DNA of 33,086 nucleotides. Origin: a virus (lineage: Duplodnaviria > Heunggongvirae > Uroviricota > Caudoviricetes). The stretch covers positions 1-33,086 of the IMG/VR virus record IMGVR_UViG_2541047931_000005; one strand, 5' to 3'. How positions within the stretch are numbered: the first letter of the stretch is position 1; each line of letters starts with the position of its first letter. Under the pieces are notes generated by a model. It ran no database searches and was not told the DNA's origin. It saw only the letters and a program-made list of their open reading frames with translations. This document shows positions 332-24,246 of this stretch, piece after piece. Made by a program: the position numbers and the translations under genes.

Positions 332-715
332 TCACCTCGCCGTCAGTTGTTTTGATTTCCGGTAGCCTGCCGCGTAAATGGCTACGTTTGGAAGACATAC
401 ACCAGTTTCTGGTTGCTTATGTCCAAACTCATTCGCGTACACAATGGCCGCTCGCTCCAGATTGCGTCTGTATTCTTTCTGTTGCCAGATCACGTCCTGT
501 GCCATGAACTTAATTGGCTTAGCGTCTTCTATGCGCTCAGGCGTTTCGTGAGTACCTTTAGCCTGAATCTGTGCCCGACTGAGGGTAGGGCGATGAAGTT
601 TCTCTGAACTGATAACCTCTTCACGAGCTTCAACACCCTGTGCAATGGCTTGCGCCTTTAAACGTTCACGGCGACGAGCTGCTGATGAACCTTTGAAAGC
701 TGTTCTGCGTGTCAT
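332..715 (-). CDS. N: N-like transcription antiterminator (P22 gene 24 type)
   Basis: Arginine-rich motif SAARRRERLKAQ near the N-terminus and a C-terminus (YAAGYRKSKQLTAR) resembling P22 gp24; GGAGG RBS before ATG at 715; sits just downstream of pL/nutL. Confidence 0.75.
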   Translation of the reverse strand: MTRRTAFKGSSAARRRERLKAQAIAQGVEAREEVISSEKLHRPTLSRAQIQAKGTHETPERIEDAKPIKFMAQDVIWQQKEYRRNLERAAIVYANEFGHKQPETGVCLPNVAIYAAGYRKSKQLTAR

Positions 716-830
716 GGTGACCTCCTGATGAACTTTGGTGATGTGGGCGGTAACCAGCCGCACAAGTCAGGGCCATCTTCACGTTTTACCCTTTCTCGCT
801 TGCCACATCCCAAAGTTCACTTTGGTTATC

Positions 831-1155: not shown

Positions 1156-2199
1156 TTAAAGAATACTTGCCAGATACTTAAGTTGTCTTTGATATCGAGT
1201 AACCGACTGGTTAACTTGTAACCTTTTCCCTTCACTTACTGTATGGAAGCGACCAACTTTTAGCTGTGATATTGGTATGCTTTCAGCCCCACTAATTTGC
1301 CCGCTTGATACAAAATCATCTGTAACCACAATTGCTTTGCTAACATCTTCATCGGCAAAGAGATGACTGTATTTTTCAGCGATTTTTACAGCTCTCTCTA
1401 TGTACATTTGAGATGCGCGACCTGGTGTTGATGATTTACGGCTTTTTGAACCAGCCATTGTCATTACGATCGCTGCTACTTTTGGAGCCCCAAGCCCACC
1501 CGCACGCTCATTCCATAATACAAAATCTTTTGATTTATTTGCCAGCATTTCCATTGTGAGATGAAGTGACTCAATTGAGTGTTCATCTACGCGTACAGGG
1601 ATAATCAATGCCTCAGACGCGCACCATGCTAGGTGTGTTCCTCCAGCATAGAAAGGGCTTGTATCCATCAATAAAATTTCGCATTTTTTGTCTTTCGCTT
1701 CATCGTTCATTATTGCGCGAAGAGAATTTAATAGTGTTGATACTGCTTTTGGTTCTCCGCGAGATAGCGCTACTTGTAGTTGTTGATACATGCTTGATGG
1801 GAAAGCGAATAGCTCAGGATCACCTGGAATCGCATAACATGCCTTACCACCTTTAAAATCTGGGCAGAAATTACTTACTCGATATGAAATATCTTCTGGC
1901 TGCTCACCAAAAGCTGGACCCAGCATTTTTGGTGTCAGTGCATTAGCTATTGTTACAACCGGTTTTTCACCACGCAATAGTGTCTCCGTTAAATTACATT
2001 GCGGGCATAAGTCAGCCACTAATACGGAGTTACGTCGTGACAGCTCATAGGCGAGGTTGAATGTCATCGTGGACTTACCAACACCACCGCGCAGATTGGA
2101 AACTGCATAACTTTTGAATTTTGGCCCGCCATCTACGACGTAACCTTCCTCAACAACTTGTGCATAGCGTGCCATTACTGACTCAACTACAGTGCTCAT
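1156..2199 (-). CDS. ParA/MinD/Soj-like P-loop ATPase with a C-terminal extension, function unknown (candidate accessory or exclusion gene)
   Basis: 347-aa ORF with deviant Walker A (LRGGVGKST), A'-like (VLVADLCPQCNLT) and Walker B-like (ILLMDTSP) motifs; AGGAGG RBS 7 nt before the ATG; AT-rich compared with its flanks. Confidence 0.85.
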   Translation of the reverse strand: MSTVVESVMARYAQVVEEGYVVDGGPKFKSYAVSNLRGGVGKSTMTFNLAYELSRRNSVLVADLCPQCNLTETLLRGEKPVVTIANALTPKMLGPAFGEQPEDISYRVSNFCPDFKGGKACYAIPGDPELFAFPSSMYQQLQVALSRGEPKAVSTLLNSLRAIMNDEAKDKKCEILLMDTSPFYAGGTHLAWCASEALIIPVRVDEHSIESLHLTMEMLANKSKDFVLWNERAGGLGAPKVAAIVMTMAGSKSRKSSTPGRASQMYIERAVKIAEKYSHLFADEDVSKAIVVTDDFVSSGQISGAESIPISQLKVGRFHTVSEGKRLQVNQSVTRYQRQLKYLASIL

Positions 2200-2225
2200 A
2201 TGAATTCCTCCTTTAAATTTTGAAT

Positions 2226-2254
2226 ATTAAAGCACCACAATGATGCAGGAGCAA
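2226..2254 (-). promoter_or_regulatory. Candidate sigma70 promoter for the ParA-like gene
   Basis: Minus strand: -35 TTGCTC, 17-bp spacer, TGn-extended -10 TTTAAT, about 25 nt upstream of the ATG at 2199. Sequence only. Confidence 0.35.
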
Positions 2255-2330
2255 TAAAAAAGCGCAGGAGAATGTAAAATTAGCAGGTGAATTAAAAATG
2301 CGCAGGAGATGTGATGTTTTGCAGGTTGAC
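2242..2330. repeat. Five phased direct repeats (core GCAGGAG/GCAGGTG/GCAGGTT, 18-20 bp period) each followed by an A/T tract
   Basis: GCAGG cores start at 2245, 2265, 2283, 2302 and 2321 on the plus strand, upstream of and overlapping the candidate promoter of the ParA-like gene. Confidence 0.6.
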
Positions 2331-2422: not shown

Positions 2423-2452
2423 TAAAAAAAGGCCGCACTTCTGTGCGACCTT
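2423..2452 (-). terminator. Intrinsic terminator immediately downstream of cI
   Basis: Minus strand GGUCGCAC-AGAA-GUGCGGCC hairpin followed by U7, beginning 5 nt after the cI stop codon. Confidence 0.65.
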
Positions 2453-2455
2453 TCA

Positions 2456-3172
<717 letters not shown>

Positions 3173-3179
3173 TTAAATC

Positions 3180-3245
3180 TATCACCGCAAGGGATAAACT
3201 TCTAACACCGTGCGTGTTGACTATTTTACCTCTAGCGGTGATAAT
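3180..3245. promoter_or_regulatory. OR3-OR2-OR1 operators with divergent pRM and pR
   Basis: OR3 TATCACCGCAAGGGATA (3180-3196), OR2 TAACACCGTGCGTGTTG (3203-3219), OR1 TACCTCTAGCGGTGATA (3227-3243); pR -35 TTGACT 3217-3222 and -10 GATAAT 3240-3245. Confidence 0.85.
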
Positions 3246-3269
3246 GATTACCTGTACTAAGGAGGTTGT

Positions 3270-3470
3270 ATGGAACAACGCATAACCCTGAAAGATTATG
3301 CAATACGCTTTGGGCAAACCAAGACGGCTAAAGATCTCGGCGTATATCAAAGCGCGATTAACAAGGCCATTCATGCAGGCCGAAAGATTTTTTTAACTAT
3401 AAACGCTGATGGAAGCGTTTATGCGGAAGAAATAAAGCCCTTCCCAAGTAACAAAAAAACAGCTGCATAA
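3270..3470 (+). CDS. cro: Cro repressor
   Basis: 66-aa [57 protein letters not shown]..., lambda Cro-like; AGGAGG RBS. Confidence 0.95.
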
Positions 3471-22779: not shown

Positions 22780-24246
22780 ATGGCTACTTGGCAAGGAACA
22801 AATGGCGGATTGTTGGCTGGTATCGGTGGTGTCAACTCAAACGCTCCGAGCGTAAATGACATCGGCAATACGCTTCAGCTTATCAGGCAGAACAATGATA
22901 TTGAGCGTTCAGGCGCTAACAATGTTGGGCTGACTGCTTTGCAAGGCCTTTCAGGTATTGCAGGGGTGTTTCAGCAGGAAAAGCAGGCTCAGCGGCAGAA
23001 AGAATTTCAGCAGGCGTACGCTAATGCTTATGCGTCTGGTGATCGCGGTGCTTTGCGTCAGTTGGCTACTCAATATCCAGACCAGATTGAATCTGTTCGC
23101 AAAGGCATGGGATTCATTGATGAAGACCAGCGCAATTCTATCGGCACCTTAGCGGCTGGCGCACGCCTTGCGGCCTCGTCTCCAGAAGCAATGCAATCAT
23201 GGCTGCAAAACAACGCCAAGGAACTGACTCGCGTCGGTGTTGACCCTAATAACGTTGCTCAGATGTATCAGCAGAATCCTTCAGGATTTGGTGAGTTTGT
23301 TGATCACCTTGGGATGGCTGCTCTTGGTCCGATTGATTACTTCAATGTTCAGGACAAGATGGCTGGTCGTGAGATTGACCGAGGCAGACTGGCAGAGACA
23401 ATCCGCAGCAATCAGGCTGGTGAAGCACTTCAGGCGAGAGGGCAGGATATTAGCCGAGCAAATGCGTTAACGTCAGCATATGCACCAACAGCCGCAATGC
23501 AGAATTACAATCAGTACGCGCAAATGTTAAAGGTAGATCCAGATGGTGCAGCGGCATTTGCGGCAGCGGCGGGAATTAATCCCAATGCTAAGAAATTACT
23601 TAAGGTTGAAACCAATCCTGATGGCTCGGTAACTAAGTATTACACCGATGGCAGCGAGGAAGCCGGAAAACTAAACCAACCTATATCTGGTGATGGCATT
23701 AAACCAATTAGCTTGCCACAAGCGCAAAGCATCATAGATAAGGCTAATGAGGGTTCCAAGAAGGCGGCGGGATTTGCTTTGCGATTAAAAGATTCAATGG
23801 ACTCAATGAATCAGCTTAGTAAAAGCATTGACCCTAAGCGAGTTGCATTAATAAATCGCTCTCTTGGTGATGGAACTATTGCAAATTTAAGCCTATCACC
23901 AGCGGAGCAGCAATATATGGTAAATGCGAGAGACGCCTTGTATGCAATTTTGCGCCCAGAAACAGGTGCAGCAATTACTCTGCCAGAGATGCAGGAGTAT
24001 TCCAAAATGTACCTCCCTCAGCCCGGTGATTCCAAGGCTGCTACTGAAACAAAAATGCGAAAAATGCAGGGCCAATATAACTCATTACGTGGTCAGTCTG
24101 GTCGCGTTTATGATGCTTTGGTGGTTTCAAGTGCTGCAAATAGTCAACAACAGAGCAATAGCCAACAACCGACAAATACCCAACAGCAGCAGAGTCAATC
24201 CGGATCATATACCTCAAAATCAGGCATTCAATTTACGGTGGAATGA
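22780..24246 (+). CDS. Ejection protein (P22 gp20-like)
   Basis: 488 aa, canonical position. Confidence 0.8.

Follow-up and report, generated by a model that had tools for sequence, protein, structure and literature searches.

ParA proteins normally bind DNA non-specifically, and site recognition in the family is thought to need a partner, be it ParB, ParG, ParR or an N-terminal helix-turn-helix (HTH) domain. In type Ia ParA proteins, which act together with ParB, this HTH domain forms an N-terminal extension of about 100 residues and the operator is an inverted repeat. In the parC/ParR system of plasmid R1, an array of repeats serves as both operator and assembly site. The parH array of plasmid TP228 has the same two roles, in a system where ParG is a ribbon-helix-helix protein and ParF a ParA-type ATPase (PMC3130281), and a comparable operator and assembly layout is formed by the omega heptad arrays of the pSM19035 omega/delta system (PMC4498918). 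Plasmid Par proteins repress their own promoters (PMC4010829). ParA-like ATPases are also described from the Gifsy-1 prophage: GiPD474 is a single-gene system encoding a 361-aa ParA/MinD/Soj-like protein with broad phage resistance, also in E. coli (PMC12724215), and STM14_3218 is the ParA-like member of the three-gene RemAIN system (STM14_3218-3220; PMC9879122, PMC12724215).

The window analysed here is the whole 33,086-nucleotide stretch of IMG/VR record IMGVR_UViG_2541047931_000005, a virus of the class Caudoviricetes. On the minus strand its immunity region comprises N, a ParA-like gene, an intrinsic terminator and a lambda-type cI (Table 1), so that the ParA-like cassette occupies the place of rexAB, between cI and N. 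Exclusion and defence genes that are expressed in the lysogen, such as rexAB, are known to reside in this slot immediately after cI. Because the 50 bp downstream of the ParA-like gene (~ 1106-1157) correspond, in many lambdoid phages, to the 3′ end of lambda rexB and the terminator region, the cassette can be described as a clean rexAB replacement in a cI/oR lambda-immunity background; the gene is followed by this rexB-end/terminator remnant and then by N, and no parB is present. Megablast against 50,697 phage records gave no match for positions 1100-2460 beyond the remnant. The predicted terminator insulates the cassette from PRM transcription. Only five of 5,426 complete E. coli genomes carried the cassette, always on the chromosome, with a LexA-family (cI) gene on one side and the N region on the other. 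What fills the rexAB slot in this lambda-immunity prophage is an uncharacterised, probably lysogen-expressed cassette.

Table 1 Features of the immunity region and of the box array in the window
Feature	Position	Strand	Basis or remark
N	332-763	-	Pfam N_peptide
ParA/Soj-fold ATPase gene, 347 aa	1156..2199	-	Pfam, motifs, AF2 model
Shine-Dalgarno AGGAGG (2212->2207) and ATG (2199->2197)	2197..2212	-	
Putative sigma-70 promoter of the ParA-like gene	2226..2254	-	Read by eye and family comparison
Box 1 (CCTGC), promoter-proximal	2245..2249	-	First C also ends the -35-like hexamer
Box 2 (CTCCTGCGCTTTTTT)	2264..2268	-	
Box 3 (CACCTGCTAATTTT)	2283..2287	-	
Box 4 (CTCCTGCGCATTTTT)	2302..2306	-	
Box 5 (AACCTGCAAAAC), distal	2321..2325	-	
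Intrinsic terminator, directly after cI	2427..2454	-	Strong, predicted
Lambda-type cI repressor	2456..3169	-	HTH_3 and Peptidase_S24
cro	3270-3470	+	Divergent from cI

Pfam recognised AAA_31 (2.8e-13) and CbiA domains in the ParA-like protein, and Walker A (RGGVGKS(T), residues 37-44), A′ (D63) and Walker B (D179) were invariant in an alignment of 16 diverse members. The signature lysine of the deviant Walker A motif (KGGxGK) is replaced throughout the family by an invariant arginine (RGGVGK), residue 37 in the window. The best Foldseek matches of an AF2 model (pLDDT 82, pTM 0.87) were McdA, Soj, HpSoj, pNOB8 ParA and pSM19035 delta (probability 1.0, TM about 0.45-0.65), and the Walker motifs together with the ParA/Soj fold place the protein in the ParA/MinD (SIMIBI) superfamily of P-loop ATPases. 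No N-terminal HTH domain was found, Walker A starting already at residue 37, and a Pfam search of the C-terminal 95 residues at E ≤ 10 returned nothing. When aligned by eye, the last ~ 60 residues appear to follow the canonical ParA C-terminus, with a β-hairpin inserted before the terminal helix. This insert (~ 316-331, FHTV-EGKRLQVN), which is the lowest-confidence part of the AF2 model (pLDDT 55-71), is a candidate for the element that reads the boxes described below. Identity with a known defence protein was dropped, as PADLOC gave only a non-significant match (E = 0.0011 over 36 residues).

Upstream of the ParA-like gene, GCAGG occurs on the plus strand at 2245, 2264, 2283, 2302 and 2321, giving five boxes on an exact 19-bp lattice, each reading CCTGC on the coding (minus) strand. 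From distal to proximal, the minus-strand units are CAACCTGCAAAACATC, TCTCCTGCGCATTTTT, TCACCTGCTAATTTT, TCTCCTGCGCTTTTTT and GCTCCTGCATCATTGTGG; on this strand they share the form W-CCTGC-R, and three of the five run on into a T-rich tract. Tandem Repeats Finder reported a period-19 array at 2245-2309. Outside this five-box array, no two GCAGG/CCTGC words followed each other at 19-bp spacing on either strand of the window. When the window was simulated 2000 times with a first-order Markov model, the longest chain at this spacing held one box 1868 times, two boxes 131 times and three boxes once. The GC content of the array region was 33%, versus 48% window-wide. GCAGG/CCTGC was itself over-represented across the window, with 93 matches against 68.5 ± 7.3 in dinucleotide shuffles (93 reached in 0 of 100), and a loose cluster of the same word, off the 19-bp lattice, lay at 22960-23014 (spacings 14, 9 and 27).

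An earlier sequence-only reading of this DNA had reported five phased repeats here. Its positions agree with ours except for 2265, which is off by one (2264), and its statement that nothing comparable exists elsewhere in the window held. The period, given as 18-20 bp, proved to be exactly 19 bp; the unit given as CTCCTGCG plus a T-tract fits two units and not the other three, and the A/T tract described after each core is found after only three. Phased curvature, also proposed there, survives in altered form: with a helical repeat of 10.5 bp, a period of exactly 19 bp leaves each unit about 69-70 degrees short of two turns, so a superhelical path would be expected instead of a planar bend, with successive units spiralling left-handedly round the DNA at roughly one superhelical turn per five units.

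On the transcript-sense strand of the array nothing came near an Rfam gathering score, and the corresponding RNA folded no better than its shuffles (z = + 0.24). An RNA element was dropped as a reading on these two results, and with neither an RNA family match nor a structural signal in the RNA, the array is taken to act at the DNA level.

The candidate promoter of the ParA-like gene consists of a -35-like TTGCTC (2254->2249), a 17-nt spacer and a -10 TTTAAT (2231->2226), which can be extended to TGcTTTAAT (2234->2226). It was not called by a consensus promoter scanner, for which reason it rests on manual reading and family comparison. Box 1 is fused to the -35 hexamer, the first C of the box being common to both; an overlap of the last copy with the -35 had been noted earlier from the letters. 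The same fusion, TTGC[A/T]C-CTGC, was seen again in many homologous loci.

Conservation of the array was assessed in the 300 nt upstream of the start codon at 105 homologous loci (homologues 49-100% identical), which yielded 95 non-identical regions. In the last 150 nt, the median number of CCTGC copies on the gene strand was 5, where the composition of the remaining locus sequence would predict 0.26; on the opposite strand the median was 0. Linkage of array and gene was near-universal: 86 of the 95 loci had at least four same-strand CCTGC boxes on the 19-bp lattice within 150 nt before the start codon, so the search for the repeat unit upstream of homologous genes, which the earlier reading had proposed, came out clearly in its favour. 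An unbiased k-mer count likewise returned CCTGC/CCTGCA as by far the most recurrent upstream word. Successive boxes were separated by 19 bp (270 cases), 9 bp (114), 28 bp (21) or 38 bp (8), while distances of 18 or 20 bp accounted for only 8. Two kinds of array result: single-box arrays, in which every step is + 19 (period 19), and doublet arrays, in which steps of + 9 and + 19 alternate (period 28). Across the family the unit consensus is W-CCTGC-A-n-W-TTTT, with T at 57-65% in positions + 8 to + 11 after the box.

Throughout 768 kb of flanking DNA, lattice arrays of at least three boxes were found directly upstream of the gene and on the gene strand, with one exception. The exception (L024) has six inverted GCAGG boxes at 9-bp spacing, from about -155 to -106, adjoining a normal CCTGC array. 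Two layouts of boxes and promoter elements were distinguishable. In the first, to which the window belongs, -35 and box are joined as TTGC(A/T)C-CTGC, with boxes at + 5/+ 14 from the start of the -35, the second box being often present; in the other, the -35 is TTGACG, with one box between the two hexamers and a second within the -10, TA(A/G)CCT.

The ParA-like family forms a compact island, with only 35 of 1.84 billion cluster representatives matching at E ≤ 1e-30. Members 57-65% identical to the window protein were present in at least eight phyla (Proteobacteria, Actinobacteria, Verrucomicrobia, Acidobacteria, Planctomycetes, Bacteroidota, Chlorobi and Myxococcota) and on 48 IMG/VR viral contigs, and the elements that carry the family have an integrase or attP. 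Among 72,556 plasmids (PLSDB), none had a member at ≥ 50% identity. Aeromonas relatives (30-32% identity) had no CCTGC array, only separate 11-bp iterons. With the family absent from PLSDB and these relatives devoid of the array, a plasmid partition reading was set aside. Among phages, tblastn found one true family member, a 62% identical protein of the P2-like Ralstonia phage RsoM1USA, where five CCTGCA boxes end at TATAAT. In this phage (L001, 3587-4357) the module has attP/int on one side and, towards the end of the genome, a DUF3800 gene on the other, which places it in the P2 ‘moron’ region, home of old and tin in P2; the paper on RsoM1USA is silent on the function of its ParA-like gene. 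A literature search on the ParA-like family, orphan prophage ParA, immunity-region ParA-like genes and 19-bp repeats returned nothing on this family or its box array.

The commonest neighbours were a same-strand repressor gene of cI/LexA type immediately upstream, at ~ 30 of 94 loci and also in the window, and two genes seen in Actinobacteria, Verrucomicrobia, Acidobacteria and Planctomycetes, namely an IS1-family DDE gene in divergent orientation (~ 20 loci) and a convergent gene for a small basic protein (14 loci). In these four phyla, array and ParA-like gene belong to a conserved block of ~ 2.27 kb that also contains the divergent, transposase-like DDE gene and the convergent small-protein gene, spanning about -1000 to + 1270 from the ParA-like start codon (loci L013, L016, L031, L033, L014, L012, L032 and others), whose homology stops at the gene ends. 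The small convergent protein has a HicB-like N-terminus at some loci and a basic KKGGxARAxxLTPExR C-terminus. We considered that the IS1-like context might mark transposon ends, and abandoned this when no terminal inverted repeats were found despite the conserved block.

Partner genes were sought by clustering ORFs of ≥ 70 aa within 3 kb of the module and ORFs of ≥ 35 aa within 600 bp downstream. The clustering revealed no ParB/ParG/ParR-like or other conserved partner gene around the module, and no conserved same-strand downstream ORF of ≥ 35 aa in 89 loci. A hidden partner gene was set aside on this basis.

A divergent clade, ~ 50% identical to the window protein and represented by 11 loci from Rhizobiales, Paraburkholderia and metagenomes in prophage-like contexts, kept an exact 19-bp lattice of five to nine boxes and the T-tract, with the core ACC-RC-RC (CCACAC, CCGCAC, CCGCGC) in place of ACC-TG-CA. 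Comparison of 209 main-clade with 9 variant-clade proteins gave 12 fixed differences. Four of these fall in the last 30 residues (F318S, Q328E, N330Y and S332A) and convert KRLQVNxS to KRLEVYEA, a clustering in the C-terminal β-hairpin (RLQVN to RLEVY). Where RLQVN is retained at 44-48% identity (L122, L124, L125), the boxes are again (C)CTGC, and the choice between single-box and doublet (9 + 19) arrays follows the protein tree. The well-sampled covariation of box and protein amounts to essentially one evolutionary switch, variant-clade members being 81-89% identical to each other. More distant relatives (34-39% identity) showed other pairings of hairpin and repeat, each a single observation: GTGAA-type boxes off the 19-bp lattice, in the upstream 120 nt, with a KLFIN hairpin (L127/L128), and two GGGACA boxes 21 bp apart flanking the -35, TTGACT, in the upstream 60 nt, with a TRLTVN hairpin (L130/L131).

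Since the array accompanies a single gene from phylum to phylum and varies together with the encoded protein, that protein is the candidate binder, and we infer that the ParA-like ATPase itself binds the array, with an apparent hairpin-based box specificity. The reading that we consider rather probable is that the five boxes are the cognate operator and nucleation site of the ATPase encoded just downstream, giving autoregulation. ATP-form dimers would read each W-CCTGC-A box, probably through the C-terminal β-hairpin (KRLQVN), contact the T-rich spacer after the box and polymerise cooperatively into a filament on the strict 19-bp lattice. With box 1 sharing a base with the -35 hexamer, RNA polymerase would be kept off the -35/-10 once the array is filled, and negative autoregulation would hold the protein level steady, the four upstream boxes acting as a platform for nucleation and cooperativity. 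Gene and array would together form a self-contained one-gene module that moves between prophage immunity regions and other mobile contexts. A wider version, which we regard as tentative, is that the ParA-type ATPase reads its own 19-bp-phased array by means of the hairpin in an anti-phage or DNA-tethering module that has spread through the prophage immunity regions of several phyla, with the array as a sensing platform; the ATPase would then be titrated between the array and invading or replicating DNA, which would set its expression and activity.

Other readings of the array were weighed against these observations. A centromere-like or tethering site, at which the ATPase would bind the array specifically and the nucleoid non-specifically so as to partition or anchor an excised or unintegrated element, seems unlikely, even if it would be compatible with the operator reading, autoregulation being then a by-product as at R1 parC, TP228 parH and the pSM19035 omega sites. 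Arrays of 4-12 boxes over 80-190 bp exceed the needs of simple autorepression, short boxes with AT-rich spacers upstream of and over a ParA-type promoter recall TP228 parH (PMC3130281), and a ParA/Soj/McdA fold with intact Walker motifs would suit such a role. However, the family had 0 members at ≥ 50% identity among the 72,556 plasmids, all five E. coli copies are chromosomal prophages, the carriers have integrases or attP, each locus has one array only and a ParB/ParG/ParR-type partner is not conserved. The centromere-like site offered by the sequence-only reading is weakened likewise. Its suggestion that the repeats are iterons bound by a regulator, which might be the ParA-like protein, gains support from conservation and covariation. 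Its other candidates, a host factor or CI, fared poorly. Binding by another protein, whether a host global regulator, CI or some further phage factor, is quite improbable in our view, although the ATPase has no recognised specific DNA-binding domain and cI is directly upstream at about 30 of the 94 loci. The array follows the gene across at least eight phyla, also in contexts that lack cI, such as beside an IS1-like DDE gene or beside int/attP, and no other gene is conserved with it; the boxes are unlike the lambda operators at 3170-3260. Box sequence and architecture track the ATPase phylogeny and not host taxonomy, the variant clade being found in both Rhizobiales and Paraburkholderia, which favours the ParA-like protein over a host factor or CI.

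Two further readings dispense with the ATPase as binder, and we hold both to be very improbable, the second slightly more so. Phased T-tracts might act as an UP-element or curved-DNA enhancer, a promoter architecture that would work independently of any protein binder and leave CCTGC incidental. The T-rich tract after most boxes (T 57-65% at + 8 to + 11) and the low GC of the region (33%, window 48%) are in line with this. It is the GC-rich CCTGC core, however, and not the T-tract, that is invariant, and core and lattice persist in high-GC Actinobacteria and Myxococcota, where the spacers are not AT-rich; a 19-bp period would in addition be out of phase with the helical repeat. The iterons of a replication origin would account for 19-bp direct repeats beside an AT-rich stretch (2340-2425 in the window), with an iteron-like period. 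Against this, no Rep-type initiator gene is conserved beside the array, the phage has replication genes of its own downstream of cII, the array is always fixed on the ATPase promoter, and the related Aeromonas plasmid has separate 11-bp iterons and lacks a CCTGC array.

With regard to described systems, the ATPases of GiPD474 and RemAIN (~ 350-360 aa) match the window gene in fold and in position, both lying in a lambdoid immunity region beside cI/cro/cII. A ParA-like protein of the same size from a Klebsiella phage, which has the motif GGVGKT and is presumed to be of the GiPD474 type, shares 24% identity with the window protein (E 4e-21), and judged by this presumed representative the window family is a different sequence family. 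A second ParA-like family, at 24-26% identity, was observed in Pseudomonas phage phi297 (L112, 1968-3020) and Klebsiella phage ST11-VIM1phi8.2 (L113, 1953-3029), its ~ 350-aa proteins being encoded directly downstream of the phage repressor gene; no box array was found upstream of these two genes. This second family is probably the GiPD474 type of defence ATPase (PMC12724215), and prophages seem repeatedly to carry a ParA-like gene after cI. By analogy with GiPD474 in the same prophage position, the window module may have a wider anti-phage role. With the presumed GiPD474-like relatives distant and devoid of the array, and with PADLOC negative, the analogy is one of position and fold.

If the operator reading is true, a compact, conserved ParA-like family appears to have acquired its own site specificity with no partner. 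Protein and site would make a simple, portable pair with an apparent specificity-switching hairpin, and the lattice would provide a structural ruler for ParA assembly on DNA, at 19 bp per subunit or dimer. It would also offer a regulatory handle on the ATPases of prophage immunity regions, whose analogues GiPD474 and RemAIN are being shown to be anti-phage.

The closest likeness in layout is to parH/ParG/ParF of TP228, where, as in the window, about 100 bp of short degenerate boxes with AT-rich spacers lie upstream of and over the promoter of a ParA-type gene (PMC3130281). In TP228, pSM19035 and R1, however, a separate downstream gene supplies the small centromere-binding protein that reads the boxes, and no such gene is conserved here; those systems are plasmid-borne, whereas the present family is absent from PLSDB and resides in integrated prophages. 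The exact 19-bp (or 9 + 19) lattice and the CCTGC core are new with respect to all three. Compared with type Ib/II partition loci, the window has the upstream, promoter-overlapping repeat array and lacks both the small centromere-binding protein and carriage on a low-copy plasmid. Like plasmid replication iterons, the units are direct repeats of ~ 19-22 bp with a conserved core and an adjoining AT-rich stretch, but the array has no linked Rep initiator, is locked to the ATPase promoter and lies in integrated elements. Type Ia ParA proteins (P1 ParA, F SopA) are ParA-family ATPases that bind and repress their own promoter, as we propose for the window protein, which differs from them in having Walker A from residue 37 with no N-terminal domain, direct repeats and no ParB. 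ParA-type genes with a repeat array on the promoter are already known; what is new is the combination of no partner or HTH domain, a rigid 19-bp (or 9 + 19) lattice kept across phyla, an apparent hairpin specificity and a habitat linked to prophage immunity regions or IS elements instead of plasmids.
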